Shown here one piece after another: positions 19,104-43,544 of a DNA stretch of 64,000 nt. The notes below the pieces were generated by a model. It saw only the letters and a list, made by a program, of their open reading frames with translations, was not told the origin of the DNA and made no database searches. The DNA lies in contig CAVQMY010000054.1 in NCBI GenBank assembly GCA_963713705.1, positions 52,314-116,313 of the forward strand, written 5' to 3'. A program made the translations under genes and the position numbers. The stretch's first letter is position 1; every line of letters starts with the position of its first letter. Source of the DNA: an uncultured Verrucomicrobiae bacterium. Lineage in GTDB: Bacteria; Verrucomicrobiota; Verrucomicrobiia; Palsa-1439.

Positions 19104-19242
19104 AACCGGCCGTGATTGTCAATCGCAAACTTCGCAAGCTTTGGGAAGTTACGGGTACATCGTGCCCCCCCCCGTGGCGAAGCTGACTGTGATAAGCACG
19201 CAGAGGCTGCAGGAACTGCGGGGACAACGCTGGGCCCATGCA

Positions 19243-21043: not shown

Positions 21044-21085
21044 GGATTGGAAATCCGAGGCTCTATCCAGCTGGGCTACAGGCGC
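21044..21085 (-). other. tRNA-like 5' fragment (acceptor, D-arm and anticodon loop resembling tRNA-Gly UCC), not a complete tRNA
   Basis: The minus strand reads GCGCCTG-TA-GCCC-AGCTGGATA-GAGC-C-TCGGA-TTTCCAA-TCC, then diverges. No T-arm or matching 3' acceptor is found downstream. Confidence 0.3.
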
Positions 21086-21176
21086 ATCAATGTTTTTTCA
21101 ACTCTAGGGCACTCGCTCTGCAGGCATGCGCCCTGTATCCCGCCCGGGACCCTCCACGCGTGGAACAATCCCGGCG

Positions 21177-22118: not shown

Positions 22119-22135
22119 GATTGTTCAGTCCCTCC

Positions 22136-23530: not shown

Positions 23531-23759
23531 TTATTAAGGCACAAATGGCCACTGATGAAGACTGGCAATCTCCGAAAAACACTTCTTGCCTTAGAAATGC
23601 GATGCTCTGTCCAACCGTGCCACAGGCGCAGACCACACGCGTCACACAAGGTGTGGAATTTAGGCAAATGGGATGATTTCCCTCGACATTTGAGGTGTTG
23701 GCCGGTCTGACGCGTTAAGACTTTTGGGTTTAATTCACATGGCGCGGCGTTCAACAATT

Positions 23760-25105: not shown

Positions 25106-25349
25106 CCGTTAGTTGATACGGGTCGTTGCTCGATCTGATGCGGCGCGATACGGGGTGCTCGATTTTCAGTTTCGTCGCGACAAATGAAAGCGGCGCACTC
25201 GGCTGAATGCACCGCCAGTTCGGCCGCCTGATTCCGCTCCACCGGCGCTCTCACTACCCTTGGGAAACAGTTGAAGTGGACCCACCGCCCTGCTACCTTA
25301 CCGGCAATTGGCGAGAAGTCGTTAAACGTTCAACGCTTCGGGAGGATCC

Positions 25350-27340: not shown

Positions 27341-27810
27341 CCGCCGGTCGTCTTGAACCTGTGCTTGTCGTCGTACCGATTCCACAAGCCGATAGTCGAA
27401 GTCCTGCGCGCGGTATGTTTACGCGACGGTGCGCAACCGCCACGAGGCGCACCAACTCCTGCTATTCCCCGAGCGAAAGATTGTTCACAGCTTTTTCGAA
27501 TCGATTCGCCGGTGTGGCTGGATCGACGCAAGTCGGCCCGCCGCGGCTAAGGCCCGACACGGTTTCTGCCGATAAGATTAAAGAGGGGAACGGAGGGAAG
27601 GCGACATTCATGCGACCTTGGGATGATTGTGTCCAGTTCCAAGGGGTGATCATCCATCTGGATGAACTGCGGAGCATGTTCGCCCGCATGGCAGCGGAGT
27701 CGGGCGATTTGAGCCGGGAGGAGCGTTACCCCCGCGACAATTCGGAGCTGGATGCGGCGATCAAAGAGGCCCCCAACTCGCGCCGAGTCAGAAGCAAGAA
27801 GTAATAATTT

Positions 27811-30800
27811 ATGAAGGGGGAAAGATTGATCAGGGCATCGGTGCTAAGCACCCTCGTCGTTGCGATAGTCGGGGTGTGCCCGGGGAGATCAGTTGCACAG
27901 GAGGCCGTCCTCACCGACAATTCTACAGTCGTGGCGGCCAAGCCCAAGACCGTTCCGAGTGCCGCATTACAACGTTCTCTTCACGTCGTGGGGCCATTGG
28001 ACGCGCGCGTGGAATGCGACGCATTGCTGAAGTTTGACCTGTCCACACTCCCGGCCGGCACCGCCAGCACGAATATACTGAAAGCCACGCTGATCCTGTG
28101 GGTAAACACCCTCACTCACAGTGGTACATTTGATGTCGTCTCGGTTGGAGGAGCCTGGAACGAACGCACGGTGACGTGGGCGACGGCGCCCGCACTGATC
28201 CAGGTGGAAGCGGCAGGCGTGGTCCCGGTGCAGGATCAATTCGTTGCGGTGGATTTGACGGAGTTGGTGAAGAACTGGGTGGATGGGACGATCACCAACA
28301 ACGGCATCGCCATCGTTCCAAACACATCCAGTATCAATGTCTTGTTTGACAGCAAAGAGAACACGGAAACGTCCCACCAACCGCAACTTCTCCTTGCGAC
28401 GAGCCAGAATGTCAGCCTGTTCCCCAACGATGTCGGCTACGTCACGGCGACCGTGACCAATGCTGTTGCCCAGACCAACGGCGCGTATTCAGCCATGTCG
28501 GCTGGCACGGCCACGTTCGCTTCCAATTCCGCCAGCCTAGGAGATCTCTCGACTTCTGGCTGGAGCAACTTTGTGAACTCAGTTACCAATGCCCTGCCGG
28601 ATGGCAACATGCTGGCCGGCAAGGCTGCCACCAACCAGAATATCAGCCTGTTCCCCAACGACGCCAACTACGTCACCATGTCTGTGACCAACGGCCTGCC
28701 GGATGTCAATACGCTGGCCGGCAAGGCTTCGACCAACATCTTCAGCGGCAGCAACACCGGCCTAGTCGCCAATGCCGGCGTACCCAATCCCTCGAAGTTC
28801 CTTCGCCAGGATGGCTCATGGACCGCTCCGGCGGGCGCGACAAATGGACTCGCCTATCTGAATGATCTGAATGCCACCAATGACACCATCCGCACCGGCT
28901 CGCAAGCCGTGACCAACGGCCTGCCGGATGCCAACACGCTGGCCGGCAAAGCCGCCACCAACCAGAACGTCAGCCTCTTCCCCAATGACGCCAACTACGT
29001 CACTATGTCTGTGACCAACGGCCTGCCCAATGCCAACACGCTCGCGGGCAAGGCTTCGACCAACATCTTCAGCGGCAGCAACACCGGCCTTGTCGCCAAT
29101 GCCGGCGCACCCGATCCCTCGAAGTTCCTCCGCCAGGATGGCTCATGGACCGCTCCGTCCGGCGCGACAAACGGACTAGCCTATCTGAATGATCTGAACG
29201 CCACCAACACCGCCATCCGCACCGGCTCGCAAGCCGTGACCAATGGCCTGCCGGATGCCAACACGCTGGCCGGCAAGGCCGCCACCAACCAGAATGTCGG
29301 CCTGTTCCCCAACAATGCCGGCTACGTCACGATGGCTGTCACCAATGCTGTCGCACAGACCAATGGCACGTATTCAAGCATGTCGGCCGGCACAGCCACC
29401 TTTGCGACAACGGCGGGTTCTCTCAATGGTTCAGGTGTAACCGGGATATATTCCGGGATGAGCGTAGGAACCGCAACATTTGCCACCACAGCCGGCTCCT
29501 TGAATGGGAGTGGGGCCACGGCAACTTATTCTGGGATGTCTGTCGGCACCGCCACGTTCACCTCCAATTCCGGCAGTCTGGGAAATCTGTCGACTTCTGG
29601 CTGGAGCAACTTTGTGAACTCAGTCACCAATACTGTCGCTCAGACCAACGGCACGTATTCAGGCATGTCGGCCGGCGCGGCCACATTCGCCTCCAATTCC
29701 GGCAGTCTGGGAGGTCTCGCGGCTTCTGGCTGGAGCAACTTCGTGGACTCAGTCACCAATGGGTTGCCCGATGCCAACACGCTGGCCAGCAAGGCTTCGA
29801 CCAACATCTTCAGCGGCAGCAACACCGGCCTGGTCGCCAATGCCGGCGCACCCGATCCCACGAAGTTCCTTCGCCAGGATGGCTCATGGACCGCTCCGTC
29901 CGGCGCGACAAACGGACTCGCCTATCTGAATGATCTGAACGCCACCAATGACGCCATCCGCACCGGCTCGCAAGCCGTGACCAATGGTCTGCCGGACGCC
30001 AACACGCTGGCCGGCAAGGCTGCCACCAACCAGAATGTCAGTCTGTTTCCCAACGACGCCGGCTATGTCACGAAAACCGTGACCAATGGGTTGCCCGATG
30101 CCAACACGCTGGCGGGCAAAGCTGCTACCAACCAGAATATCAGCTTGTTCCCCAACGACGCCGGCTACGTCACGCAAGCCGTGACCAATAGCCTGCCGGA
30201 TGCCAACACGTTGGCCGGCAAGGCTTCGACCAACATCTTCAGCGGCAGCAACACTGGCTTGGTCGCTAACGCCGGGGCGCCCGATCCCTCGAAGTTCCTC
30301 CGCCAGGATGGCTCATGGTCCGCCCCGGCGGGTGCGACAAATGGATTCGCCTATCTAAATGATCTGAATGCCACCAATGACGCTATCCGTACCGGCTCGC
30401 AAGCCGTGACCAATGGCCTGCCGGATGCCAACACGTTGGCGGGCAAAGCTGCCACCAACCAGAATGTCAGCCTGTTCCCCAACGATGCCGGCTACGTCAC
30501 GCAAGCCGTGACCAACGGCCTGGAAACGATCACCGCAGCGAATGGATTGGCCTCAACGAACACCGCCCCCAGCGCTCTGACAAATGCCACGTTCACCTTG
30601 GGCGCGAATTTCACAAACGGCAACTTCCGGTGTTTCTACGCCGTCAGTGTGAGCATGGCCAGCACTACGGTGGTCGATTTCATCAACCTAACGGATGCGA
30701 CGACAAACACCATTTCGGTCGCCGACGTTGGTGGTCTGATCCTGACAAACTCAGTATTTCAATTGGCCGGGCCAAATGAGGTTTTCATAATCAACACGAA

Positions 30801-30858
30801 TCGGTCGGGAGCAGGGCAGGCGCCTTCTCTCATCAGTGTGACGGGAAAGATACTATAG
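27811..30858 (+). CDS. 1015-aa secreted protein: N-terminal DNRLRE-like beta-sandwich followed by a mosaic of tail-fibre-like repeats
   Basis: Signal peptide MKGERLIRASVLSTLVVAIVGVCPGRSVAQE. ...ALLKFDLSTLPAGTASTNILKATLILWVN...FDVVSVGGAWNERTVTWATAP is a DNRLRE-type pattern. It is followed by at least 8 copies of NQN(V/I)SLFPNDAGYVT and 4 copies of ...DPSKFLRQDGSWTAP.GATNGLAYLNDLNATN... Confidence 0.8.
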   Translation: MKGERLIRASVLSTLVVAIVGVCPGRSVAQEAVLTDNSTVVAAKPKTVPSAALQRSLHVVGPLDARVECDALLKFDLSTLPAGTASTNILKATLILWVNTLTHSGTFDVVSVGGAWNERTVTWATAPALIQVEAAGVVPVQDQFVAVDLTELVKNWVDGTITNNGIAIVPNTSSINVLFDSKENTETSHQPQLLLATSQNVSLFPNDVGYVTATVTNAVAQTNGAYSAMSAGTATFASNSASLGDLSTSGWSNFVNSVTNALPDGNMLAGKAATNQNISLFPNDANYVTMSVTNGLPDVNTLAGKASTNIFSGSNTGLVANAGVPNPSKFLRQDGSWTAPAGATNGLAYLNDLNATNDTIRTGSQAVTNGLPDANTLAGKAATNQNVSLFPNDANYVTMSVTNGLPNANTLAGKASTNIFSGSNTGLVANAGAPDPSKFLRQDGSWTAPSGATNGLAYLNDLNATNTAIRTGSQAVTNGLPDANTLAGKAATNQNVGLFPNNAGYVTMAVTNAVAQTNGTYSSMSAGTATFATTAGSLNGSGVTGIYSGMSVGTATFATTAGSLNGSGATATYSGMSVGTATFTSNSGSLGNLSTSGWSNFVNSVTNTVAQTNGTYSGMSAGAATFASNSGSLGGLAASGWSNFVDSVTNGLPDANTLASKASTNIFSGSNTGLVANAGAPDPTKFLRQDGSWTAPSGATNGLAYLNDLNATNDAIRTGSQAVTNGLPDANTLAGKAATNQNVSLFPNDAGYVTKTVTNGLPDANTLAGKAATNQNISLFPNDAGYVTQAVTNSLPDANTLAGKASTNIFSGSNTGLVANAGAPDPSKFLRQDGSWSAPAGATNGFAYLNDLNATNDAIRTGSQAVTNGLPDANTLAGKAATNQNVSLFPNDAGYVTQAVTNGLETITAANGLASTNTAPSALTNATFTLGANFTNGNFRCFYAVSVSMASTTVVDFINLTDATTNTISVADVGGLILTNSVFQLAGPNEVFIINTNRSGAGQAPSLISVTGKIL
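28620..30510 (+). repeat. In-frame coding tandem repeats (about 102-bp and 222-bp sub-units in alternating order)
   Basis: GTGACCAA(C/T)GG(C/G/T)(C/T)TGCC(G/C)GATGCC-type anchors recur at 28684, 28912, 29014, 29236, 29752, 29974, 30079, 30181 and 30403. Confidence 0.85.
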
Positions 30859-31130
30859 CTGGAACCGCATTTCTGTCGGCACCGCGGTGTCGGCGGGTTG
30901 ACCGGTCGCGGGGCTGTTCTGGCCGCGATCCGCACGAACAACATCTCACGCCATTTGCCACATCCACAATCTCCTTCAGCGGTGCACTTTCTGCGTTGCC
31001 CGCGGCGGGGGATGTGATAGGTTGAGACAGCCATGAAACGCCGGGGGGCAATTTTAGCCGCCTACATTGTTCTTCTCGCGGCAATCCCAACCCTTCGTGG
31101 GACCGGTCAGGGACCGGGCACGCAGAGACC

Positions 31131-32330
31131 GTGTGCTTTATCAAAGTCGACGGCGTGATCGGACCGGCAACAGCCAGCTACATTTCCCGCGCCGTCGATG
31201 AAGCGGCGTCACAAGGCGCGCAATGTTTGCTCATCCAACTCGACACCCCCGGGGGACTGCTCGATTCGACCAAGGAGATCGTGCAGAAATTCCTTGCCTC
31301 GACCGTGCCAACGGTCGTCTACGTGGCGCCACAGGGGGCCCAGGCGGGCAGTGCCGGCTGTTTCATTACGCTGGCGGCCGACGTGGCCGCGATGGCGCCG
31401 GCCACCGCCATCGGCGCGGCGCATCCCGTCGAGATGGGTGGCGAAGAGATCGACAAGACGATGAAGGAGAAGCTGGAGAATTTTTACAGCAGTTACATCG
31501 AGGGTATCGCCGTCAAACGAAAGCGGAACGCGGAGTGGGCGAGGTCATCGGTGCGCGACAGCGCGGCGATCACCGCGGAAAAGGCACTGCAGATGAAAGT
31601 CATCGATTTCATCGCGAAGGATCGCGAAGACCTGTTGAAGCAACTCGACGGGCGCGAAGTGAACAGCCGTAAACTGAAGACGGCCTCGGCGACGGTGGTG
31701 GAGATTCCGCCGTCCCTGCGCGAAAAGGTTTTTCAGGCCATCGCGCATCCGCAGATGATGCTGGTACTGACATTGATCGTGATGTACGGGATCATCGGGG
31801 AGTTGACCAGCCCCGGCGCGATACTGCCCGGTGTGGCGGGCGTGATCGCGCTGGTATTGTTGCTGTATCTGGCGACGGCGCTGCCGATGAACGTGGCCGG
31901 ACTGGTGTTGTTCGGCGTGGCGATCGCGCTGTTTCTCATCGATGCGTTTGCCCCGACGCACGGGGTGTTGACGGCCGGCGGCATCGTGGCGTTTTTCCTC
32001 GGCGCGCTCATGCTGTTTGACCGTTCTGATCCGTACTTGAAGTTGTCGCTGGCGTGGGTGGTGCCGGCCACGGTGGTGACGGCGTTGTTTTTCATTTTCG
32101 TGGTCGGCAGCGGTTTGCGGGCGCAACGGATGCCCATCAAGGCCGGCGCGGAGACGATGCGCGGCCGGGTGGTGACGGCGTTGACAGACATTGACGGGCA
32201 GGGCGGCAAGGTGTTCGTCGAAGGAGAATACTGGCAGGCCGTCAGTGATGTGCGCGTGGCGCAAGGCCAGCGCGTCGAGATTGTCGGGAGGCAGGGACTG
32301 ACGTTGGAAGTGAAACCGAAACTTACCTAA
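31131..32330 (+). CDS. NfeD-family membrane-bound ClpP-class serine protease
   Basis: ...IKVDGVIGPATASYISRAVDEA...LIQLDTPGGLLDSTKEIV...GAQAGSAGCFI..., TM block and a C-terminal OB-like domain. A good signal peptide (MKRRGAILAAYIVLLAAIPTLRG, ATG 31033) lies upstream in a different frame. Confidence 0.8.
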   Translation: MCFIKVDGVIGPATASYISRAVDEAASQGAQCLLIQLDTPGGLLDSTKEIVQKFLASTVPTVVYVAPQGAQAGSAGCFITLAADVAAMAPATAIGAAHPVEMGGEEIDKTMKEKLENFYSSYIEGIAVKRKRNAEWARSSVRDSAAITAEKALQMKVIDFIAKDREDLLKQLDGREVNSRKLKTASATVVEIPPSLREKVFQAIAHPQMMLVLTLIVMYGIIGELTSPGAILPGVAGVIALVLLLYLATALPMNVAGLVLFGVAIALFLIDAFAPTHGVLTAGGIVAFFLGALMLFDRSDPYLKLSLAWVVPATVVTALFFIFVVGSGLRAQRMPIKAGAETMRGRVVTALTDIDGQGGKVFVEGEYWQAVSDVRVAQGQRVEIVGRQGLTLEVKPKLT

Positions 32331-32334
32331 AGGA

Positions 32335-33135
32335 GTGCCTATCATGGATGCCGCGGAAAAATCGTTTGGTCTGATCCCCTGGATTGTGGTGTTGTTCGTG
32401 TTGGGCGCGGTCGTACTGCCACAAACGATTCGCATCCTGCGCGAGTATGAGCGCGGGGTGATTTTTCGATTGGGCAAACTGCTCGGCGCAAAAGGGCCCG
32501 GGCTGATCCTGCTCATCCCGATTGTGGATCGCATGGTAAAGATGGACCTTCGCGTCATCACGATCGAGGTGCCCAAACAGGAAGTGATGACCCGAGACAA
32601 CGTGCCCGCCACGGTGGACGCGGTCATTTACTTTCGCGTCGTCGACCCGCAGGCGGCGGTGGTCAAGGTGGAGAATTTCCTCAAAGCCAGTTCGCTGATC
32701 GCCCAGACGACACTGCGGAGTGTGCTTGGCCAGTCGCAGCTCGACGAGTTGCTGGCCCAGCGCGACAAAATCAATCAAGAGCTTCAGGAAATCATTGACA
32801 AGCACACCGAGCCGTGGGGCGTCAAGGTCACCTCGGTCGAAGTTCGCGACGTGGTTCTGCCCGACACAATGAAGCGGGCCATGGCCAAACAGGCGGAGGC
32901 GGAGCGCGAGCGCCGCGCCAAGGTTGTCAACGCCGAGGGCGAGTTTCAGGCCGCCGAAAAACTCGTGCAGGCGGCGGGTATGATCGCCGCGCAACCCATC
33001 GCCCTACAGTTGCGTTTTCTGCAAACGATGGCGGAGATCGCCAGCGAGCACAACACGGCGACGTTCATTCCGATCCCGATGGACCTATTCACGCCGTTCC
33101 TGAAGAAGTCCGGCGACGAGACCGCGAAACACTAG
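32335..33135 (+). CDS. SPFH/band-7 (stomatin-like) protein
   Basis: ...IRILREYERGVIFRLGKLLGAKGPGLILLIPIVDRMVKMDLRV...VKVTSVEVRDVVLP...AEAERERRAKV... Confidence 0.9.
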   Translation: MPIMDAAEKSFGLIPWIVVLFVLGAVVLPQTIRILREYERGVIFRLGKLLGAKGPGLILLIPIVDRMVKMDLRVITIEVPKQEVMTRDNVPATVDAVIYFRVVDPQAAVVKVENFLKASSLIAQTTLRSVLGQSQLDELLAQRDKINQELQEIIDKHTEPWGVKVTSVEVRDVVLPDTMKRAMAKQAEAERERRAKVVNAEGEFQAAEKLVQAAGMIAAQPIALQLRFLQTMAEIASEHNTATFIPIPMDLFTPFLKKSGDETAKH

Positions 33136-33235
33136 AGGCTGGCTCCGCACGGGATGGTGCTGGCCGGGTTTGGCACCGGCCGACACGACGAATCGATGTT
33201 GAAGCTTCTCGTCACGGAAGTTACAGTCCAGCCTT

Positions 33236-34522
33236 GTGAGACTCACTTCGTGGCGCGACGGCGTCACACGCTACCAATGGCTGGTGCTGTTCGTGGCGTG
33301 GCTCGGCTGGGTGTTCGACTCGATGGACGCGACGATCTACGCGCTGGTCATGCAGCCGGCACTTCACGACCTGTTGCGCACGCCGGGAGTCGTATCCGTC
33401 AGTGCCAACGTCATCGGCTGGTACGGCGGTATCATCTTTTCGGTGTTCCTGATCGGTTGGGCCATCGGGGGTGTCCTCTTCGGCGTCGTGGCGGACAATT
33501 TCGGACGGACCAAGGTACTGGTTTTTACGATCCTGATTTATGCCGTGTTCACGGGCATGGCGGCGCTGTCGCGGACGTGGTGGGAACTGGCGCTGTTCCG
33601 GTTCCTGACGGCGCTGGGCATCGGTGGCGAGTGGGCCGCTGGCGCGTCACTCGTGGCGGAAGTATTTCCCGAAGAAAAGCGGGCCCAAGCCGCGGGTCTT
33701 TTGCAGTCGGCCTGGGCCGCGGGATTCCTGGTGGCGGCAATTATCGCCCTGCTCCTGCGTGACCATGGGTGGCGGCCGGTGTTTGTGGTCGGCATTGCAC
33801 CGGCAGTCGTGGCGCTTCTCGTGCGGCTGTGGGTCAAGGAGCCGGAGCGATGGATCAAGGCCCGCGCCGAGGAACGACAGTCTCCCGCTCGGGGCCGTCA
33901 AAGGCTGGCGGAATTGTTCGCGCCGGGGCTGGTGCGTTCCACTTTGGTCGGGTCCGGGTTGGCGTTTGTGGCCGTGTTTGGCCTGTGGGGGGCGACGAAT
34001 TGGACGCCGACGCTTATCCGCGCGTTGCCCGATCTCCGAGATTTGAGTCCCTCGGAACTCACGGGCCGGGTCAGCTACGCGACGATGGTGCTCAACGTTG
34101 GAGCGGTATTCGGTTATCTGAGTTTCGGTCCGTTGGCCGACCGCCTGGGGAGACGTCCGGTATTCGCGATGATGTGCGTGGGCAGCCTGATGATGCTGCC
34201 GATCACGTTTCTGACGCCGCGATCCTACGTCCACGTGCTGTTGTTGTTGCCGTTGCTGGGGTTTTTCAACAACGGCATCTTCAGCGGTTTTCCGATTTAC
34301 CTGCCGGAATTGTATCCGACGCGGATTCGCGCGACCGGCGCGGGCTTTTGTTTCAACGTCGGTCGGGCGCTGGCGTCGACCGCCCCATTTTTGACCGGTT
34401 GTCTCGTCACCGCGCTGGGTAGCTTTGGCCGCGCCGCCAGCGCGGTGGCGGTGGTCTATCTCGTTGGGCTTCTGATCCTGCCGTTCGCTCCCGAGACCCG
34501 GGGCAAACCTCTGCCGCCCTGA
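33236..34522 (+). CDS. MFS transporter
   Basis: About 12 TM segments. MFS loop motifs GVVADNFGRTK and GPLADRLGRRPVF. Confidence 0.8.
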   Translation: MRLTSWRDGVTRYQWLVLFVAWLGWVFDSMDATIYALVMQPALHDLLRTPGVVSVSANVIGWYGGIIFSVFLIGWAIGGVLFGVVADNFGRTKVLVFTILIYAVFTGMAALSRTWWELALFRFLTALGIGGEWAAGASLVAEVFPEEKRAQAAGLLQSAWAAGFLVAAIIALLLRDHGWRPVFVVGIAPAVVALLVRLWVKEPERWIKARAEERQSPARGRQRLAELFAPGLVRSTLVGSGLAFVAVFGLWGATNWTPTLIRALPDLRDLSPSELTGRVSYATMVLNVGAVFGYLSFGPLADRLGRRPVFAMMCVGSLMMLPITFLTPRSYVHVLLLLPLLGFFNNGIFSGFPIYLPELYPTRIRATGAGFCFNVGRALASTAPFLTGCLVTALGSFGRAASAVAVVYLVGLLILPFAPETRGKPLPP

Positions 34523-34637
34523 GGGAGGCGGATTTCCGACTTGACCAAGAGTCGGGCGCGGGGCGAAAATTCCCGCAAGTCGGTGGGCGCGTGCGGTCGG
34601 CGCAAACGCCTTCGGGTTGCGTGGGAGTTGATCGGAA

Positions 34638-36274
34638 ATGAAAATGCCGCGCGGCCATGAACAGTACACTTTGCCTGGGTCTTTCTGCCGTTTCATCCGC
34701 TTTCTGGCCTCGATCCTGACGATCGTCGCGGTCGTGTCCCCGATGGAAGCGGTCGGTCAGAGCGCCAGCCCGGTCGCGACCAACCTTCCACGTTCTGCGC
34801 AATCCGGTAGCAGCACGACCGGATCGTCTGAGAGACTCGCGCCAGCGCTGGTCGTGAGAGAACCGGCTGTCGCCGGGTTGTTCTATCCGCGGGATGCGGG
34901 ACAACTGTCGCAAACGCTCGACGCGCTTCTGGCGGGCGCGAGACCGCGGGTGATGGAAGGCGAGTTGCGCGCCATCTTGTGTCCGCACGCCGGTTACGAA
35001 TTTTCCGGCCCGGTGGCGGCCGAAGCCTACCGGCTGCTGGACGGGCACACTTACGATACCGTGGTCATCCTGGCGCCGAGTCACTATGCGTTGTTTCGGG
35101 GCGCGTCAGTGATCGCCGCGGACGCGTATCGCACACCGCTTGGGCTTGTGCCCGTGTCGCCCAAGGCCCGGCAATGGGCGAAAGCCGCGCCATTCGTGCT
35201 CGAACCGAAGTGTCTGGTGCAACGTCCTCCGTGGTCGAAGCAGGCCTCGATCCGGAGCCGGAGTTCGGTGAGGATACGCCGGAGACGTGGGAGCATTCGG
35301 CGGAAGTGGAGGTGCCATTCCTGCAGAAGACGCTGACGAATTTCTCGGTCGTCTCGATCATTACCGGCGAGGTTGACACCGAGAGACTGGCGCAGGCGTT
35401 GGCGAACCGTCTCGACAACAAGACGCTGTTGGTCGTCAGCACGGACCTGAGCCACTACTACCCGTATGACATCGCGCGCGAGAAGGATGCGCGGTGCGTG
35501 TCCGCCATCTGTGACCTTGATATTGACCGGATGAAGGCTGAGGAGGCCTGCGGCAAGACCGGCGTGCTGACGTTGCTTTCACTGGCACGGTCAAAAGGCT
35601 GGAAAGCCACATTGCTCGATGCTCGCAACAGCGGCGACACTTCGGGGCGGAAAGACAGAGTTGTCGGTTACGCCGCCATCGCCTTCTGCTCCCCATCGTT
35701 GCAGGCGTTCACCCGTGAAGACCGGCAACAGTTGCTGCTGCTGGCCCGACAGAGCCTCACGGAGGTTGTCACCAACGACAAACTGCCGGACGTGAAGACC
35801 GACGGTTTTCCGCCGAAGTTCGCGGAAGTGAAAGGGTGCTTCGTCACGCTCACCGAACATGGTCGCCTGCGCGGGTGCATCGGCCACATCCAACCCCAAG
35901 AGCCGCTCTACAAGGCGGTGATGGACAACTCCCTGAACGCCGCAAAACGCGACCCCCGGTTCCAACCCGTCCGGCCAGACGAACTCGACCAGGTGGAGAT
36001 CGAAATCAGCGTGCTCACGGTGCCCGAGCCGCTCCCGTTCAGCTCGCCCGAAGACTTGCTGGCCAAATTGCAGCCCAATCGGGACGGCGTCGTCCTGCGG
36101 ATGGGCGGCCTCAGCGCGACGTACCTGCCGCAGGTTTGGGAGCAGATACCAGACAAGACGCAGTTTCTGGACACGCTCGCGGAAAAGGCGGGCGCAGCCG
36201 CGGGCGACTGGCGCGCGCCGGGTACGCAGGTGTTCATCTACCGCGTAGAATCCTTCAAGGAAGCGGAGAAGTGA
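34638..36274 (+). pseudogene. Fused AmmeMemoRadiSam system protein B (MEMO-like) / protein A (AMMECR1), with one frame change at ~35200-35260 (or an assembly indel)
   Basis: ORF 34638..35336 has ...LFYPRDAGQLSQTLD...ILCPHAGYEFSGPVAAEAY...VVILAPSH... ORF 34979..36274 continues ...WEHSAEVEVPFLQ...VVSTDLSHYYP...NSGDTSG (MEMO). It then has ...CFVTLTEHGRLRGCIGHIQPQEPLYKAV...AAKRDPRFQPV... (AMMECR1). Confidence 0.8.
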
Positions 36275-38391
36275 ATCGCCGCGTGGGGCTTGCCGTCGGC
36301 GCGCTGGGCGTCATGGCGGCGATGACGCAACTGGCGCTCATGCGCGAGATGCTGTGCGTGTTCAGCGGCAATGAACTGGCCCTTGGCGTGATCCTCGGCA
36401 ACTGGTTGTTGTTGACGGGGCTTGGCTCCTGGCTCGGACGGACGGCCGGTCGCGTGCGCCACCCGCAACGCGCACTGGCGCTTCTGCTCCTGTTGGTTGC
36501 TCTCCTGCCGTTGGCACAGGTGTTCACGCTACGCGAACTGCGCAACGTGGTGTTTGTCCGAGGCGCGACCATTGGACTCTCCGAAACCGTGACGGCGAGT
36601 TTTCTGTGGCTGGCGCCGTTCTGCATCGTGTCCGGTTATATGCTGACGCTGGCCTGCGGCGCGCTCGCGACGCCCCAAGGACGGGGCGCCATCGGCACCG
36701 TGTATGTTACGGACAGCGTCGGCAGCGTTCTCGGCGGAGCGTTGTTTACCTATGTTTTGGTGCGGCGGCTCGACCACTTCGCGCTCCTGAGCCTGCCGGC
36801 GCTTGTCTGTCTGCTGGTTGCCGGATGGCTCGCCTGGCATGAACGGCAATACTGGGTGGTGGGAGCGGCGGGTATCATGGCCGCGGGATTGGTGGTGGCA
36901 TTGGTCGCGATGGACGTGGACGGCGCCTCTACCGCGCGGCTGTTTGCCGGCCAGCGCGTGGTGTTTCACGGCAACTCGCCCTACGGCAAACTGGTCGTGA
37001 CCGAATCGGCCGGCCAGTTGAACTTCATTGAGAACGGCGTGCCGGTGATTGCGACGCACAACATTGAGGAGGTTGAGGAAACCGTGCATTACGCGATGTC
37101 CCAACGACCCCGTGCCCAGCGTGTCCTGCTGATTGGTGGCGGCGTGTCCGGGACAGCGCGTGAGATTCTCAAGTACGGCGTCGCGGAGGTGACGTACGTT
37201 GAACTCGATCCACTGATTATCACGGTTGGCCGTCGGTTCCTGCCGGAAAGCCTCGCCGACCCGCGGATCCGGGTATTGAATACCGACGGGCGGTTGTTCG
37301 TGAAACGCACGGGGGAGACCTTTGACGTGGTGATTGTGGATGTGCCGCCGCCGTCCACATCGCAGATCAACCGGTTCTTCACGTCCGAGTTCTTTGACGA
37401 GGTGAAGCGGGTGCTCACGCCGGGGGGCGTGCTCGCCTTCCCGCTGGGGCACTACGAAAACTTCGTCAGTCCCGAACTGGCGCGCGTATTGGCCTCGGCA
37501 TCCACGACCTTACGGCGGACGTTTCGCCACCAACTCGTGATTCCCGGCGGGCGTATATTTTTCCTGGCCTCGGACGGCGAACTCTACGCAGACATCTCCG
37601 CCCGCATCGAGCAGTCGGGCGTATCAACTCACTGGGTGAACCGGCATTATCTCAGCGCGGTGTTGACGCCCGACCGGCTGGCGGACATGCAACGAGCCAC
37701 GGCGGCGACGGCGACGGCGAACGCCGATTTCAACCCGGTGTTATACTACTATCACCTGATGCATTGGATGAGCCAGTTCCGTGAGCGCTACGGCCTGTGG
37801 GCGATCGTGCTGGTCGCCGGCTTCGCGGCGTACCTTGCGCGGACACGGGCCGTGCCGTTTGCGATTTTCGCGTCCGGCTTTGCGGCTTCGGCGTTGGAAA
37901 TTGTGCTGCTGCTCGGCTTCCAAATCCTGTGCGGCTCCGTGTATCGTCAGGTTGGCGTTATCATCACGGTGTTCATGGCCGGCCTGGCGGCGGGGGCATT
38001 CGCGGCGACGCGGTATCGACCCATCGGCAACCGCGTGCCGTTGGCGGGACTGGCCCTGGGGATCGCGCTCCTCGCGGTGATACTCCCGGCGGGATTGAAA
38101 TCGCTCGAGCACGCTCCCGTGCCGATCGTCCAAGGGGCGATTGCCCTGCTCACGCTGGTGTTGGCGTCCATGGTCGGGATGGAATTTCCCCTGGCAACAC
38201 GGACGATCTTCCGCGACATGGCCGGAACGGCATCGAGGTTGTACACCGCGGACTTCACCGGCGCGTGCCTCGGCGCACTGCTGGCCAGCACACTATTGAT
38301 CCCGCTTCTGGGGGTGACGGCGACGTGCCTGTTGGCGGGCGGCGTGAATGTCGTGAGCGCGGTCTGGCTGTTGGCGGGGGATTTTCGATGA
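36271..38391 (+). CDS. Polytopic membrane protein with a central spermidine-synthase-like (aminopropyltransferase/methyltransferase fold) domain
   Basis: GTG 36271 overlaps the upstream stop (GTGA). There are N- and C-terminal TM bundles. The core reads ...RVLLIGGGVSGTAREILKYGVAEVTYVELDPLIITVGRRFL...VVIVDVPPPSTSQINRFFTSEFFDEVKRVLTPGGVLAF. Confidence 0.75.
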   Translation: MNRRVGLAVGALGVMAAMTQLALMREMLCVFSGNELALGVILGNWLLLTGLGSWLGRTAGRVRHPQRALALLLLLVALLPLAQVFTLRELRNVVFVRGATIGLSETVTASFLWLAPFCIVSGYMLTLACGALATPQGRGAIGTVYVTDSVGSVLGGALFTYVLVRRLDHFALLSLPALVCLLVAGWLAWHERQYWVVGAAGIMAAGLVVALVAMDVDGASTARLFAGQRVVFHGNSPYGKLVVTESAGQLNFIENGVPVIATHNIEEVEETVHYAMSQRPRAQRVLLIGGGVSGTAREILKYGVAEVTYVELDPLIITVGRRFLPESLADPRIRVLNTDGRLFVKRTGETFDVVIVDVPPPSTSQINRFFTSEFFDEVKRVLTPGGVLAFPLGHYENFVSPELARVLASASTTLRRTFRHQLVIPGGRIFFLASDGELYADISARIEQSGVSTHWVNRHYLSAVLTPDRLADMQRATAATATANADFNPVLYYYHLMHWMSQFRERYGLWAIVLVAGFAAYLARTRAVPFAIFASGFAASALEIVLLLGFQILCGSVYRQVGVIITVFMAGLAAGAFAATRYRPIGNRVPLAGLALGIALLAVILPAGLKSLEHAPVPIVQGAIALLTLVLASMVGMEFPLATRTIFRDMAGTASRLYTADFTGACLGALLASTLLIPLLGVTATCLLAGGVNVVSAVWLLAGDFR

Positions 38392-38657
38392 ACCAGCGCC
38401 ACAAGCGAATTCGGGTGGGCTACATTGTTATCAAGACGCTGCGCTTTACGAGCTGGTTTCTGCTGGCATTCGTGCTAACTTATCTGACGACGGGGTATAT
38501 GATGAGCGGCCGGCTCACGCTCGGCGGTTGGGCCGACCCGAAGGCGGCGCTCACGATTCACCGCCTGCTGCACGTGCCGCTGCTGGTGATGTTTGGGCTC
38601 CACGCGCTGGGCGGCATTTACCTCGCGATGCGAAGGAAGCGATGGATCCGGTGGTGA
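38388..38657 (+). CDS. Small two-TM membrane protein (89 aa)
   Basis: ATG 38388 overlaps the upstream stop (ATGA). MNQRHKRIRVGYIVIKTLRFTSWFLLAFVLTYL...HRLLHVPLLVMFGLHALGGIYLAM. Confidence 0.5.
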   Translation: MNQRHKRIRVGYIVIKTLRFTSWFLLAFVLTYLTTGYMMSGRLTLGGWADPKAALTIHRLLHVPLLVMFGLHALGGIYLAMRRKRWIRW

Positions 38658-39976
38658 AACCGACGGGACCGGAGAGAGAGGACGGACTCGACGCCGCGCT
38701 GTTGGACGCGCCGCAGCGACCCATGACGCGTCGGGAAGCGATCCGTTACGGCGCAACCGGGCTGGCGTGTGTCGCTGGTGCCAGCGGGCTGGCGTGGTAT
38801 CTGTTCCGGCAGGCTCGCGAAGAGATCGCCCTCACTGGCGTGTTCCGGGGCGGCGGACCGAGTGACGAGGTTTGGACGCTGTGGCAGCAACGCGGGTGGG
38901 TGAAGGAAGCCGCGCACTATCTCCAGCTCGGGAGCAATGTGCAGTGCAAATTGTGCCCCAACAATTGCATCCTCGCGCCCGGCGACCGGAGCCATTGCCG
39001 AAACAAGGTCAATCGGGGCGGGACGCTGTACACGATGGCCTACGCCAACCCGTGCACATTTCACGTCGATCCCGTTGAGAAAAAGCCGCTGTTCCATTTT
39101 CATCCGGGCACGACGACTTTTTCGCTGGCCGCGTCCGGCTGCGGGTTCCGCTGCCTGAACTGTCAGAACTGGGAGATCTCGCAGAAGCAGCCAGAGGAGA
39201 CCAAGGACCCGACCGGTCCCTCGCTGCGACTGCGTCCGCCGTTGCCCGCATCACTCAGCCTGAATGACCTGCAGCGGCTGACCATGTTGCCGGAAGACGT
39301 CGTGGCGGTGGCGGAAGCGTTGCAGTGTCCATCGATTGCCTACACCTATTCCGAGCCGACGGACTCCTACGAGTACGTGTCTGATACGGCTCACATGACT
39401 CACGCGCACAATCTCAAGAACATCTTCGTCACCTGCGGCTTCATCAACGAGACTCCGCTCCGCGACCTTGCGGCGCACCTCGACGCCGCGCATGTCGACC
39501 TGAAGGGGTTCGATGACGAGGTCTACAAGCGGCTCGACTCCGGCCACCTTCAGCCGATTCTGGATACGCTGGTCACGTTAAAGCAAATGGATGTGTGGTT
39601 CGAGGTCATCAACCTTGTGGTGCCGACGTACACGGACAATCTGGACACGATCAAACGGATGTGTGATTGGCTCGTCAGCAACATCGGGCCGGATCACCCG
39701 CTGCATTTCTCGCGGTTTCACCCGGCGCACAAACTCGAGCACTTGCCGCCGACGCCGGTGGACACGCTGGTGGACGCCCGCGACATCGCGCGCCGGGCGG
39801 GTCTGCGTTATGCGTATGTGGGGAACGTCCGCGGGTTGCCGGATGCCGAGACGACGTTCTGCCCGAATTGCCATCGGGCGATTGTCGAGCGCGACATTTT
39901 CGCCGTCACGCGACTGGACATCGCCGACGGGAAGTGCAAGTTCTGCCAGACCGGGATTGCCGGCGTGTGGGCGTGA
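38642..39976 (+). CDS. AmmeMemoRadiSam system radical SAM enzyme with an N-terminal Tat-like/TM leader
   Basis: ...MTRREAIRYGATGLACVAGASGLAWYLF...; ...CKLCPNNCILAPGDRSHCRNKVN...; radical SAM cluster motif CGFRCLNCQNW. The start overlaps the preceding gene by 16 nt. Confidence 0.85.
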   Translation: MDPVVKPTGPEREDGLDAALLDAPQRPMTRREAIRYGATGLACVAGASGLAWYLFRQAREEIALTGVFRGGGPSDEVWTLWQQRGWVKEAAHYLQLGSNVQCKLCPNNCILAPGDRSHCRNKVNRGGTLYTMAYANPCTFHVDPVEKKPLFHFHPGTTTFSLAASGCGFRCLNCQNWEISQKQPEETKDPTGPSLRLRPPLPASLSLNDLQRLTMLPEDVVAVAEALQCPSIAYTYSEPTDSYEYVSDTAHMTHAHNLKNIFVTCGFINETPLRDLAAHLDAAHVDLKGFDDEVYKRLDSGHLQPILDTLVTLKQMDVWFEVINLVVPTYTDNLDTIKRMCDWLVSNIGPDHPLHFSRFHPAHKLEHLPPTPVDTLVDARDIARRAGLRYAYVGNVRGLPDAETTFCPNCHRAIVERDIFAVTRLDIADGKCKFCQTGIAGVWA

Positions 39977-40234
39977 CGGCGCGCGCGGCGGCCCGCACAT
40001 CGACCATCCCGAACAGCACAACGGCACGGACAGCGTCGTGCCGGTTGACCTCTACATCCCCGGTTTTCCACCGCCAACGCCGGGGAGCGATGATTCTCTC
40101 CATCGTGACGAACCCGATCTTTGGGCGACGGCAAAGGCCCGGAATCTGCTTGTGAACATTGTCAAAGGTGATATTACGAGCGGGCGGGCGGCGGAAGGGG
40201 CGGCAATTGTCGCGGGGCGTAAATCATATGGACC

Positions 40235-42450
40235 ATGTTGGCTAACATTCCAGGAGCGCGAACGCGACGGCTCAGCGTCGTTACGCTGGCCATCGGTGTT
40301 TCCGCTGGTCTGTTGTTCCCGCGGACGGCATCCGCCCAGACAAACGATGCGAGCGCCTCGGCCATGTCGACCTCGGAGGTGGTTCGCCTGCCCGAGGTGG
40401 TGGTGATCGGGCGCGCGAGCAACCTCGTGGGCGTGGCCGAATCCGCGTCGCAAGGCACGACCGGCGCGGCGCAACTGGCCGACCGCCCGATTCTGCGCAG
40501 CGGCGAAATTCTGGAAACCGTTCCCGGCGTCATCATCACGCAGCACGCCGGCGGCGGGAAGGCGAACCAGTATTTTCTGCGCGGCTTCAATCTGGATCAC
40601 GGCACGGACTTCGCGGTGTTCCTCGACGACATGCCGCTCAACCTGCCGTCGCACGCGCATGGCGAGGGTTACTCGGACATGAACACGGTCATCCCGGAAT
40701 TTGTGCAGCGGGTGGATTACGAGAAAGGCCCTTATTACGCGGACGTGGGCAATTACGGTTCGGCGGGATCGGCGCATCTGGTTTTTTACAAGACGCTGCC
40801 GCAGGATTTCGTCACGGTCGAAGGCGGCATGTATGGCTACGAGCGCGGCGTGTTCGGCGTTTCGCAAAAACTGGGCACGGGCAATTTGCTTTACGGCGGC
40901 GAAGCGTATCACGACGACGGCCCGTGGGTGCATCCGGATGATTACTCCAAATTCAACGGCCTTTTGACCTACAGCCAGGGTGATGACGCCAACGGCTTCA
41001 GCGTCACGGCGCGCGGCTATCACGGCAAATGGAATTCGAGCGATCAAATTGCCGAAAGCGCCGTGCCTGACGGTTGGCTTCTTCGGCGCGATCAATCCGA
41101 CCGACGGCGGCAATTCGCAGCGTTACAGCCTGCAAGGCCGAATGGCATCGTGACGGACGGCAATTCCGAGACCAAAATCACGGCCTACGGATTTTATTAC
41201 GACCTCGATTTGTTTTCCGACTTCACTTACTTCCTGACGGACCCGAATCACGGCGACCAGTTCGAGCAGCAGGACCGGCGCTGGGTGGCCGGCCTGGACG
41301 CGCGCCACACGCATTTTCAGCCAGTGGTTTGGCCGCGACGTGGAAAACACATTCGGCCTGCAAGTCCGCAACGACTGGATCAACAACGGCCTTTACCAGA
41401 CGGAAGACCGCGTGCGCGTGGACAAATTGGATCCGACCACGGCGGCACCATTCTGCCCGCCGACCACGGAAGCGGATGATTTTACGGACACGCAAGTCGG
41501 TATTTATGCTGGAAAACAAAATCCAATGGGCGGAAAAATTCCGCTCCGTCGCGGCCTTGCGCGGCGACCTGGATTATTTTGATGTCACCAGCCTGACCAC
41601 CCCGGCCAATTCCGGCACCGCCTTCACGCTTCTGCCCAGCCCGAAGTTGAGTTTGATTTTCGGCCCGTGGGCCAAGACGGAATTCTATGTGCAGGGCGGA
41701 TTTGATTTTCACAGCAACGACGGGCGCGGCGCGACGCAGACCGTGGAGCCGGTCTCGGCGGACAATCCCAATCCCGGCACGCCGATCGCGAGAATTCCCG
41801 GCCTGATCCAAACCAAAGGCGCGGAAATCGGCGTGCGCACGCTGATCGTGCCGCAATCTGCAAAGCACCTTTTCGCTGTGGTATCTGCACAGCGATTCCG
41901 AACTGCAGCAGGATGGCGACACCGGCGGCACCGTGGCTTCAAAACAGCCGAGCGACCGCTACGGCGTCGAATGGGCGAATTACTACACGCTGACCAAGCA
42001 TCTGGCGTTTGACTTTGACTGCGGCGGATTCCATCGCCCGTTTCACTTCGGCTGGATGCCAGCGATGACGCCGCGCCCGGCAGTCCGGGCGGCACAGCAC
42101 GTGCCCGAAGCGGTCGGGCTGGTGATTTCATCGGGCATCACGCTGCATGATCTTGCACGGCTTTTCGGCGAGCCTGCGGCTGCGCTATTTTGGCCCGCGC
42201 GATTTGACCTCGGACGGGATGTATCAATCCAGCGAAACGATTTTGCTCAATGCGGAAGCCGGCTACCAAATCAACAAGACCTGGCGCATTTCCGCCGAAT
42301 TCTTGAACCTGCTTGACCGCCGCGACCACGACATTGATTACGCCTACACATGTCGCCTGACGCCGACAGCCCCGGCCTCGGGCGTTTACGGATGTTTTCC
42401 ATCCCGTCGAACCGTTTCAAGTGCGCGTCGGCCTGACGGCGCAATTCTGA
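40235..42450 (+). pseudogene. TonB-dependent outer-membrane receptor, fragmented by at least six frame changes
   Basis: The plug region is intact (...VVVIGRASNLVG...DRPILRSGEILETVPGVIITQH...FLRGFNLDHGTDFA...). The barrel is scattered over all three frames, e.g. GFFGAINPTDGGNSQRYSLQG / EWHRD / GNSETKITAYGFYYDLD within 41070-41170. The canonical terminus ...HPVEPFQVRVGLTAQF* ends at 42450. Confidence 0.8.
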
Positions 42451-42671: not shown

Positions 42672-43544
42672 TTACCTTGTTGAATGTGCGAACGTGTAGC
42701 CATGAAAGCGCAATCCGATTTTCCTGAGACTTTGAGAGAAGCGATTCAGTATTTCGCTGATGCTGATCGCTCGTTGCAATTCATGGCGAATGTCCATTGG
42801 CCTGACGGTAAAACGAGTTGTCCCGCTTGTCAATCGGTGAAGGTCACATTCATGCGTAGTTGCAAGCGGTGGAAATGCCGGGACTGCAAGGGGCAGTTCT
42901 CGGTGAAGGCGGGCACGATATTCGAGGAAAGTCCCCTTGGGTTCGACAAGTGGTTGCCCGCGCTGTGGATGATCGTCAACGCCAAGAATGGCATCAGTTC
43001 CTATGAGCTTGGGCGGTCGCTGGGCGTCACGCAAAAGACCGCTTGGTTCATGCTGCATCGGATTCGGTACGCGCTGCAACGCGGCTCGTTGTGCAAGTTT
43101 GCCGGTAACGTGGAAGTCGATGAGACTTTCATCGGCGGGAAGCGCCATCTTGCCCCTTGAAAGCAGCGTGTCCGTATCGTAGGCATTGACCTTTGTGACG
43201 TGGTAGATGTTCGTCTTGGCCAATTCGGTTTCAAGTTGCGTCTGGAATTGATCGAAATGGAATTTTACGACATGATGGCGCTCCGCGCCTAGAAGTTCAT
43301 CGGGCGCATAATTGCCCGTTGACACCAAAAAATGTTTCAGGTATTGCGCCGCCTCATGGCAATCGACAAGGGGAATCTCGGGGTGGTCTAACAACCAATT
43401 CAACCATACGTATGCAAAACCGCAATCAGTGCGGAAATCATTCCAGCCTTGCACGTCCCCATACTTTGTTTCGGGAGTGAAACGCGCGAAAATTCTCGTA
43501 GCGCCGCCAAGACGGTATAGCCAAATTGGGTTAATGCGCTTCAT
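42672..43544 (-). CDS. Hypothetical opposite-strand ORF inside the IS1595-like element. Only the first ~130 aa (43150-43544) look native; the rest is antisense to the transposase fragment.
   Basis: MKRINPIWLYRLGGATRIFARFTPETKYGDVQGWNDFRTDCGFAYVWLNWLLDHPEIPLVDCHEAAQYLKHF... I recognise no family. Confidence 0.3.
   Translation of the reverse strand: MKRINPIWLYRLGGATRIFARFTPETKYGDVQGWNDFRTDCGFAYVWLNWLLDHPEIPLVDCHEAAQYLKHFLVSTGNYAPDELLGAERHHVVKFHFDQFQTQLETELAKTNIYHVTKVNAYDTDTLLSRGKMALPADESLIDFHVTGKLAQRAALQRVPNPMQHEPSGLLRDAQRPPKLIGTDAILGVDDHPQRGQPLVEPKGTFLEYRARLHRELPLAVPAFPPLATTHECDLHRLTSGTTRFTVRPMDIRHELQRAISISEILNRFSQSLRKIGLRFHGYTFAHSTR
42684..43160 (+). pseudogene. IS1595/ISXO2-like transposase, N-terminal zinc-ribbon/HTH part only
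   Basis: ...HWPDGKTSCPACQSVKVTFMRSCKRWKCRDCKGQFSVKAGTIFEESPLGFDKWLPALWMIV...YELGRSLGVTQKTAWFMLHRIR...VEVDETFIGGK. It stops immediately afterwards. No DDE domain is present in any plus-strand frame downstream. Confidence 0.7.

Follow-up and report, generated by a model that had tools for sequence, protein, structure and literature searches.

The window analysed here, a 64,000-nucleotide stretch of DNA from an uncultured Verrucomicrobiae bacterium, carries between positions 34638 and 39976 four consecutive coding units on the plus strand that make up an enlarged AmmeMemoRadiSam operon (Table 1). In NCBIfam, the components of this system are protein A, or AMMECR1 (TIGR04335), protein B, which is Memo-like (TIGR04336), and a radical S-adenosylmethionine (SAM) enzyme (TIGR04337). 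The AmmeMemoRadiSam neighbourhood and the fusion of AMMECR1 to a dioxygenase (Memo-AMMECR1) were first noted by Balaji & Aravind (2007; PMC2034487); the classical system consists of three soluble proteins, for which RNA-base modification was proposed (PMC2034487). The operon of the window comprises a Memo-AMMECR1 fusion gene, a gene for a membrane protein with an inserted spermidine synthase (SpeE)-like domain, a small gene and the radical SAM gene. Direct reading of the junctions confirmed the overlaps proposed when the sequence was first read by itself (hereafter the sequence-only reading): GTGA at 36271-36274 between the Memo-AMMECR1 and SpeE-like genes, ATGA at 38388-38391 between the SpeE-like and small genes, and 16 nucleotides (38642-38657) shared by the small gene, which ends with TGA at 38655-38657, and the radical SAM gene, which starts with ATG at 38642. 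A Shine-Dalgarno-like purine-rich motif (GGAG or AAGGAAG) precedes every start of the operon. The four-gene coupled unit of that reading is borne out, and its linkage is kept across species-level genomes; the interpretation of the four genes as one conserved, translationally coupled unit is supported. Promoter and terminator scans gave counts no higher than chance, and no riboswitch or other RNA element was found in window positions 33000-41000 at E<=1, nor was any RNA element found upstream of the operon in nine related loci at the gathering score.

Table 1. Positions and supporting evidence for the operon, its domains and motifs, and related proteins in other loci (TM, transmembrane helix; PVC, Planctomycetota-Verrucomicrobiota group).
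Feature	Position	Strand	Basis or remark
Memo-AMMECR1 fusion gene (AmmeMemoRadiSam proteins B+A)	34638..36274	+	TIGR04336, TIGR04335, PF01875, PF01871
1-nt deletion (missing C) splitting the fusion gene	35249..35250	+	comparison with five relatives
706-aa MFS-like protein with inserted SpeE-like domain	36271..38391	+	NF037959, PF01564, AlphaFold2 model
TM1-7 of 706-aa protein	aa 3-213 (36277-36909)	+	
SpeE-like domain	aa ~225-500 (36943-37770)	+	
SpeE-like motifs	EETVHY 37075; GGGVSG 37135; YVELDP 37195; NTDGR 37279; DVPPPSTSQINR 37339	+	
GGGDG Asp of SpeE	aa 292		V/I in 115/120 PVC homologs; never acidic in 29 non-PVC proteins
Ribose-binding Glu of SpeE	E311		conserved in SpeE-like family
Adenine-binding Asp of SpeE	D339		conserved in SpeE-like family
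First DxxDP Asp of SpeE (amine handling)	aa 357		D in PVC; N, L or A elsewhere
Second, catalytic DxxDP Asp of SpeE (amine deprotonation)	aa 360		P in window; D/E/P/A across family
TM8-14 of 706-aa protein	aa 508-702 (37792-38376)	+	
89-aa two-helix membrane protein	38388..38657	+	alignment, invariant columns; without curated family
Radical SAM enzyme of AmmeMemoRadiSam system, 444 aa	38642..39976	+	TIGR04337, 324.3 bits, cut-off 220
Twin-arginine leader T-R-R-E-A-I	38726-38743	+	
Extension-bearing SpeE-like proteins	L166 4459-6948; L169 4451-6946; L086, L092-L094, L096, L098, L100, L103, L109		

The neighbourhood proved to be widespread. More than 1,800 relatives of the SpeE-like protein are present in the protein collection, and a scan of one genome per species found such a relative in 155 genomes. 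The best 80 of these, searched with the window's proteins, are the source of all locus counts for the PVC group; they belong to Verrucomicrobiota, Planctomycetota (Pirellulales, Planctomycetaceae, Phycisphaerae, Thermoguttaceae) and one Polyangiaceae. Memo and AMMECR1 were encoded upstream of the SpeE-like gene on the same strand in 67 of the 72 loci that could be evaluated, and the radical SAM and small genes were found downstream in 55 and 54 of 64 evaluable loci; all four genes occurred together in 47 of 57. Clustering of all open reading frames (ORFs) in the flanks of the 80 loci revealed no recurrent neighbour beyond these four. The sequence-only reading had considered that the adjacency of the SpeE-like gene might be unique to this genome; it occurs in many, so uniqueness no longer counts against the linkage. 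A three-gene core (Memo-AMMECR1, SpeE-like and radical SAM) is also present in named genomes of Bacteroidota and Prolixibacteraceae, and the radical SAM/SpeE-like pair alone in Aminicenantes. The order of the genes differs among lineages, which points to selection on linkage and not to the inheritance of one frozen operon.

The Memo and AMMECR1 proteins had been described as fused in one gene, which holds for the orthologs; in the window itself the fusion is divided between two ORFs. The first (34638-35336) covers positions 1-107 of the TIGR04336/Memo profile and the second (34979-36274), in another frame, covers Memo positions 124-270 followed by the full TIGR04335/AMMECR1 profile. The AMMECR1 match reached 197.7 bits (cut-off 99) and the Memo halves 105.1 and 118.6 bits (cut-off 26), for a gene that is split in the window and intact in its orthologs. 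Characteristic motifs of both Memo (PHAGY, 34983; APSH, 35073; EHS, 35291; EACG, 35543) and AMMECR1 (RGCIG, 35870; DPRF, 35951) were located. Comparison with relatives narrowed the frame break, earlier placed within 35200-35260, to one missing C after 35249: five of them (L006, L008, L009, L010 and L024; 91-94% nucleotide identity) have GCCTCGCATCC where the window has GCCTCGATCC, so that the window reads GCCTCG-ATCC at the missing-C site. The fusion is read in the frame of 34638 up to 35249 and from there in the frame of 35219. With the C restored, an intact 545-aa protein is obtained, equal in length to the intact ortholog of L001, and an exact look-up of this repaired protein in the protein collection gave no match. 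A programmed -1 frameshift at 35249 was considered and rejected because the relatives carry one more base and an uninterrupted frame.

The frame break is either an assembly error or a recent inactivation of this copy. In the latter case no full-length fusion would be made and the operon, decaying in this genome, would be non-functional here. The position of the deletion outside any homopolymer, the extra C in all five relatives and the damage to genes immediately beyond the operon (a TonB-dependent receptor spread over several frames, an IS1595 fragment) speak for such decay. Yet the missing C is the sole coding indel private to the window in a syntenic block of 9 kb (30962-39978), and the other three genes of the operon are intact, their products being 93-95% identical to those of relatives. 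A private 1-nt insertion was also found in L010, a metagenome-assembled genome (MAG), within the conserved NfeD gene at the equivalent of window position 31349; it shows that single-base assembly errors occur in such data, and an error of this kind is therefore plausible in the window. We consider a decaying operon unlikely.

Export signals were found on both soluble components. An N-terminal Sec-type signal spans approximately residues 17-40 of the Memo-AMMECR1 protein of the window, and 68 of 69 orthologs open with a signal peptide; of these, at least 28 have a lipobox Cys at its end. The window protein has no lipobox: its Sec-type signal (...VVSPMEAVGQ) is without the Cys, as in the rest of its clade. 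Memo-AMMECR1 is predicted to be exported by Sec and to be a lipoprotein in many relatives. In the radical SAM enzyme, about 25 polar residues are followed by T-R-R-E-A-I-R-Y-G and by a hydrophobic stretch that extends to about residue 55, and the folded radical SAM core begins near residue 75 of the AlphaFold2 model. The radical SAM motif itself, CGFRCLNC (39140-39163; aa 167-174), has the CX3CX2C pattern, and is preceded by an N-terminal Cys motif, CKLCPNNC (38945), and followed by C-terminal Cys pairs at 39860 and 39935. A twin arginine with a hydrophobic stretch opens 56 of 57 orthologs, in the form S/T-R-R-x-A-I or, in planctomycetes, S-R-R-R-F-L-K. Pfam models of twin-arginine translocation (Tat) signals match weakly (PF10518 in two proteins, PF10399 in four), and AxA-type cleavage sites are seen in other lineages of the enzyme. 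The radical SAM enzyme is predicted to be exported via the Tat pathway in folded form, with its Fe-S clusters. The Tat-like leader of the sequence-only reading is accordingly real and conserved; it is not peculiar to this operon, being widespread among bacterial AmmeMemoRadiSam enzymes.

The second gene encodes a protein that, taken as a whole, matches the NF037959 model ('fused MFS/spermidine synthase') with 76.7 bits (cut-off 40). Its AlphaFold2 model (pLDDT 82.9) consists of seven helices, the SpeE-like domain and seven further helices. MFS proteins have a parallel 6+6 repeat, with termini and central loop in the cytoplasm. Profile comparison aligned TM1-6 with TM9-14 (E 1.7e-4, probability 49.5%), leaving TM7 and TM8 as extra helices that flank the inserted domain. 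In 120 homologs, Lys and Arg residues averaged 18.65 on the side of the termini and 6.0 on the side of the SpeE-like domain. Because TM7 and TM8 are added to an MFS-like core with cytoplasmic termini, a periplasmic position is predicted for the SpeE-like domain, which sits between TM7 and TM8; signals of three independent kinds agree on this side. The envelope or periplasmic location first suggested for the radical SAM enzyme gains stronger support from these predictions, which extend it to the signal or lipobox of Memo-AMMECR1 and to a periplasm-facing SpeE-like domain.

The leaders could also be membrane anchors only, in which case the cytoplasmic face of the membrane would be where the radical SAM enzyme, Memo-AMMECR1 and the SpeE-like domain are tethered. 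Radical SAM chemistry requires SAM and a low-potential donor, both of which are cytoplasmic; moreover, the radical SAM leader in the clade of the window has no clear AxA site and is followed by basic residues, and in the AlphaFold2 model it appears as a long, low-confidence helix. Against this stand the conservation across phyla of the twin-arginine consensus S/T-R-R-x-F/A-L/I-K and the lipoboxes on many Memo-AMMECR1 orthologs, lipoproteins being exported by definition. Positive charges also lie ahead of the hydrophobic stretch, an arrangement that places the N-terminus inside and the remainder outside, and both the positive-inside count and the logic of the MFS repeat put the SpeE-like domain outside. 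Anchoring without export appears very unlikely.

The SpeE-like domain retains the fold of spermidine synthases. PF01564 matches residues 269-388 with 95.8 bits (cut-off 22.9), and the match of the 706-aa protein to solved structures is confined to this domain, with 1uir as the best entry in both sequence comparison (1.8e-30) and a Foldseek search with the modelled domain (E 2.5e-12); solved spermidine synthases align over its full length. No SpeE equivalog model reached its cut-off (TIGR00417, 90.1 vs 249.55; PRK00811, 114.9 vs 260; PRK03612, 189.7 vs 472). In SpeE, the Asp of GGGDG confers selectivity for decarboxy-SAM (dcSAM), and the Asp pair of DxxDP serves in amine handling and deprotonation. 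The first of these positions is V, I or L across the SpeE-like family, and the DxxDP positions vary (Table 1), as opposed to the nucleotide-binding residues, which are conserved. Two motifs conserved in this family in particular, E-E-x-x-H-Y and P-x-P-S-T-x-Q-[IL]-N-R, were identified, and a carboxylate, for instance the one of SAM, might be bound by the invariant Arg. We regard the SpeE-like domain as unlikely to be an aminopropyltransferase and read it as having retained the binding of an adenosyl ligand, with its transfer chemistry changed or lost. The earlier suggestion of a polyamine-synthase-like enzyme that moves a decarboxy-SAM group is weakened by the loss or variability of the acidic residues.

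These same features bear on the main rival to an exported system with a SAM-related membrane link, namely that the SpeE-like protein catalyses a fourth step, as a transferase of an alkyl group (methyl, aminopropyl or aminocarboxypropyl) from SAM or dcSAM to the same envelope substrate, for example a lipid or isoprenoid presented by the membrane domain. This is essentially the interpretation given in the sequence-only reading. It agrees with the full SpeE fold and its conserved nucleotide-binding residues, with the tight linkage to the other genes of the operon and with the position of EExxHY and PxPSTxQ[IL]NR at the amine-substrate site of SpeE, where their strong conservation is what a real active site would lead one to expect. 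It would also fit the modification of aliphatic isoprenoids, to which Burroughs et al. (2019) reportedly linked the contexts of Memo. The acidic residues that define aminopropyltransferases are nevertheless lost or variable, the cut-offs of the equivalog models lie far above the scores obtained, and a periplasmic domain would still require an exported donor of the SAM type. A further difficulty is that the gene follows the exported form of the radical SAM enzyme and not Memo-AMMECR1, when a step of the pathway would be expected in cytoplasmic systems too. A transferase is possible, if doubtful; it accounts less readily for a gene that tracks the exported form and that stays beside the radical SAM gene where Memo-AMMECR1 is encoded elsewhere.

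That tracking became apparent outside the PVC group. At E<=1e-30, an exhaustive search with the radical SAM enzyme yielded 1,122 cluster representatives. Of the 150 best, roughly half are without N-terminal extension and about one third carry a leader of 35-70 residues, mostly with R-R-x-F-L; the twin arginine is nearly invariant in 23 leader-bearing representatives with a mutual identity of only 30-40%. A metagenome scan seeded with those leader-bearing representatives provided 80 non-PVC loci. A full-length SpeE-like relative was encoded in 40 of them (E down to 1e-227), nearly always adjoining the radical SAM gene. When the loci were limited to those with at least 3 kb on both sides, a SpeE-like gene was present in 19 of 23 with a Tat-type leader on the enzyme, as against two of nine with a leaderless enzyme. 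Three loci (L122, L130 and L134) are of a fully cytoplasmic type, with neither leader, nor signal on Memo-AMMECR1, nor SpeE-like gene, and in seven loci the radical SAM/SpeE-like pair is adjacent with no Memo-AMMECR1 nearby. As judged from these gene contents and predicted leaders, the SpeE-like gene and the exported form of the enzyme go together in several phyla. Unusual arrangements were also observed: in L113 (7041-9005) Memo and the radical SAM enzyme share a single ORF, and the SpeE-like gene is divergent on the opposite strand, and L149 (10839-14747) and L164 (10535-14167) contain ORFs of about 1200-1300 aa with a SpeE-like region beside leaderless radical SAM genes.

The third gene of the operon encodes a small protein with invariant residues R19, W23, H58 (38559), H72 (38601), Y78 and R83. 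Both His residues are located on the second helix, 14 residues apart, and both ends of the protein are rich in Lys and Arg and are predicted to be cytoplasmic. Weak matches to the last two helices of prokaryotic cytochrome b561 (PF01292) were obtained for 14 of 25 members of its family (best 3e-5) and to the cytochrome b of succinate dehydrogenase (PF01127) for eight of 25 (best 5.8e-5); searches of solved structures gave no useful match. Automatic JGI names in its cluster include 'cytochrome b subunit of formate dehydrogenase' and 'Ni,Fe-hydrogenase I cytochrome b subunit'. In its resemblance to dihaem cytochrome b anchors, the small protein corresponds to one half of such an anchor, the last two helices. 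Its gene occurs with the radical SAM gene in 54 of 55 PVC loci, both being missing in nine, and a hidden Markov model of the small protein found no match in the 80 non-PVC loci even with filters off.

In eleven SpeE-like proteins of Bacteroidota type (Table 1), about 120 additional N-terminal residues form three helices with the motifs H-R-K-x-W-N and W-H-V-x-F-G-x9-F-H, the latter containing His-x13-His, with the spacing found in the small protein. These proteins are about 810-860 aa long, and FHxxWH ends the second motif. The extensions weakly match PF01292, DUF4405, PF03188 (eukaryotic cytochrome b561) and PF01794 (the membrane domain of ferric reductases). The extension may be the fused counterpart in Bacteroidota of the small protein of the PVC group, and a haem-b-like module that is part of the system, fused or free, is a lead suggested by these resemblances.

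Several known systems share part of this architecture. Components A, B (as the two halves of a split gene) and the radical SAM enzyme all exceed the curated cut-offs of the AmmeMemoRadiSam families and are co-located, and the fusion was already known; the operon differs from the classical system in that every component has an export signal, that a 14-helix MFS/SpeE-like protein is a near-constant fourth member and that PVC bacteria add a two-helix cytochrome-b-like protein as a fifth element. With SpeE (PF01564; PDB 1uir, 1inl, 3o4f) the window domain has in common the fold and the nucleotide-binding residues, and the window protein scores above the cut-off of one of the membrane-fused forms (NF037959, as opposed to PRK03612); it departs from SpeE by the missing or variable GGGDG and catalytic DxxDP Asp residues, by its failure to reach the equivalog models and by its situation in the central loop of an MFS-like core, predicted to be periplasmic.

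Formate dehydrogenase-N (FdnGHI) and [NiFe] hydrogenase-1 (HyaABC) also couple a Fe-S protein with a Tat leader to a membrane protein that bears His residues, and it is the C-terminal helices of their anchors (PF01292, PF01127) that the small protein weakly matches. The His ligands on helix IV of FdnI are 14 residues apart, which is the spacing of the small protein. Unlike those anchors, that of the operon has two helices, with all matches below cut-off, and the exported enzyme is a radical SAM enzyme and not a respiratory oxidoreductase. Having two helices only, the small protein would serve as an anchor either as a dimer or in a pair with the MFS protein.

The closest solved fold to the radical SAM enzyme is that of PflA (3cb8; E 4.8e-13, TM-score 0.76 on the target), and weak matches to NCBIfam activase families were seen; no solved structure matches the enzyme by sequence at E<=1e-3. 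PflA is an activase that acts on a protein substrate. In contrast to PflA and other activases of glycyl-radical enzymes, the enzyme of the operon adds a Tat leader, an N-terminal CxxCPxxC, an insert after the motif and C-terminal Cys pairs, and the operon encodes no glycyl-radical enzyme partner.

The literature offers few points of comparison. Solved structures of AMMECR1 are labelled 'hypothetical proteins', and 'AmmeMemoRadiSam' has only passing mentions in the searchable literature. The 2019 survey of Burroughs et al. (J Biol Chem 294:10211) is said, in a paper that cites it, to have extended the contexts of Memo, and reportedly linked them to the modification of aliphatic isoprenoids. A link between AMMECR1 and spermidine synthase was not found in the searchable literature; the 2019 survey might already list the neighbourhood. 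What is known is the trio and the Memo-AMMECR1 fusion; what appears to be new here is the exported location with membrane partners, of which the neighbourhood itself was possibly listed in 2019.

Taken together, the predictions describe a conserved membrane-associated module whose enzymes face the periplasm. We give about an even chance to the operon encoding an extracytoplasmic AmmeMemoRadiSam system that is put together on the outer side of the inner membrane. In such a system, a PflA-like enzyme exported in folded form with its clusters would act on or with the exported Memo-AMMECR1, and Memo/AMMECR1 would have a substrate located in the envelope or periplasm. SAM, the inhibitory by-product 5'-deoxyadenosine and low-potential electrons all belong to the cytoplasm, so that an exported enzyme would need a membrane partner. 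Rather than a polyamine synthase, the MFS/SpeE-like protein could be the membrane link between the exported enzyme and the cytoplasmic pool of adenosyl metabolites, with a role in exporting or presenting SAM, in recovering 5'-deoxyadenosine/methionine, or in both. Haem b would be bound by the two invariant His residues of the 89-aa protein, or by the fused extension in Bacteroidota, and this haem-b module would anchor the radical SAM enzyme and pass electrons across the membrane. Radical SAM chemistry in the periplasm, with delivery of SAM or removal of 5'-deoxyadenosine by the MFS/SpeE-like protein and a haem-b wire, is a tentative and somewhat unlikely scheme.

A number of observations weigh against an exported system of this kind. 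All localisation is predicted from sequence, and the internal-repeat alignment used for the topology of the 706-aa protein is of moderate significance. We know of no availability of SAM or of low-potential reductants in the periplasm, and no exported radical SAM enzyme was found in the searchable literature. The association between leader and SpeE-like gene (Fisher p=0.0026) ignores shared ancestry and was calculated from leaders classed by eye. Mixed loci occur (L105, L133, L155 and L160), in which a leaderless radical SAM enzyme is accompanied by a signal-bearing Memo-AMMECR1, of lipoprotein or Sec type, in the absence of a SpeE-like gene (the L133 contig covers the Memo part only). The radical SAM and small genes are both missing nearby in 9 of the 64 PVC loci. 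As for the haem-b-like module, every match of the small protein is below the thresholds of the cytochrome b families (16.9 vs 30.1 bits for the window protein), and its profile aligns weakly with that of the Bacteroidota extension, the invariant residues being colinear (hhalign E=0.028, probability 1.8%). The module cannot be essential, since both the small gene and the extension are lacking from about half of the non-PVC loci that contain a SpeE-like gene. The giant SpeE-like proteins, the mixed loci and the PVC loci without radical SAM gene fit neither the extracytoplasmic system proposed here nor the transferase.

Conservation of Memo and AMMECR1 extends from archaea to humans, and the two proteins are tied to human disease. 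If correct, the scheme of periplasmic radical SAM chemistry would, as far as we could find, be without precedent both as an exported radical SAM system and as a dedicated route for the use of SAM outside the cytoplasm, and it would place the substrate of Memo/AMMECR1 in the cell envelope and not in RNA. A large bacterial branch of the system appears to be exported and bound to a specific membrane protein with an adenosyl-binding domain. This argues that the substrate in that branch is not purely RNA or nucleotide, and raises the question of how SAM and electrons are supplied to a radical SAM enzyme outside the cytoplasm. It also names testable partners, namely the SpeE-like domain and, in the small protein, the His pair. 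Bacteroidota, Planctomycetota and Verrucomicrobiota all have cultured members, which makes genetics possible given a cultured carrier.

Other genes were observed in or beside the related loci. Genes present between the SpeE-like and small genes in some PVC loci were rejected as members of the module, being unrelated inserts (PIN/antitoxin cassettes and an ankyrin protein). They are located at 12127-12579 in L015, 12044-12325 in L022 and 12839-14833 in L023, where they break translational coupling of the type seen in the window; by eye, their translations correspond to a PIN-like toxin, a ribbon-helix-helix-like antitoxin and an ankyrin-repeat protein. Genes for DUF6599 and DUF362 proteins adjoin the system in two distant lineages, L001 (11782-13793; Verrucomicrobium) and L167 (5040-6982; Aminicenantes), followed in L001 by a large protein with 4Fe-4S ferredoxin domains; the DUF pair is not recurrent among the 80 PVC loci. 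In a Pirellulales MAG (L026, 5472-5567), a selenocysteine tRNA gene (RF01852, 68.8 bits) precedes the system by about 3 kb.

In the window, a pair formed by an NfeD membrane protease-like gene (31131-32330) and an SPFH/band-7 gene (32335-33135) lies ahead of the operon, followed by an MFS sugar-type transporter gene (33236-34522). Upstream synteny of the transporter is found in close relatives only (at least 78% identity; eight loci), and it was for this reason rejected as a member of the conserved module. Further upstream, ORF 27811-30858 encodes a highly repetitive, signal-bearing protein of 1015 aa with repeats like NGLPDANTLAGKA-TNQN-SLFPNDAGYVT, whose sole family match is a weak one to Disaggr_repeat; the 3.6-kb segment in which it lies (27387-30962) is missing in L008 and L010. 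A 6-kb segment (19155-25209) is likewise without counterpart in these two close relatives, which join 19155 to 25209. Downstream of the operon, the segment 39978-43834 is missing in L008 and L010, whose sequence resumes at 43834. It contains a TonB-dependent receptor gene with a Plug domain at 40235-41479, distributed over several frames up to about 42600, and a fragment (42684-43160) of the zinc ribbon of an IS1595-type transposase. The first gene past this insertion, on the minus strand at 43862-45397 and syntenic with L010, encodes a 511-aa protein similar to PIG-L family deacetylases, with an N-terminal signal.

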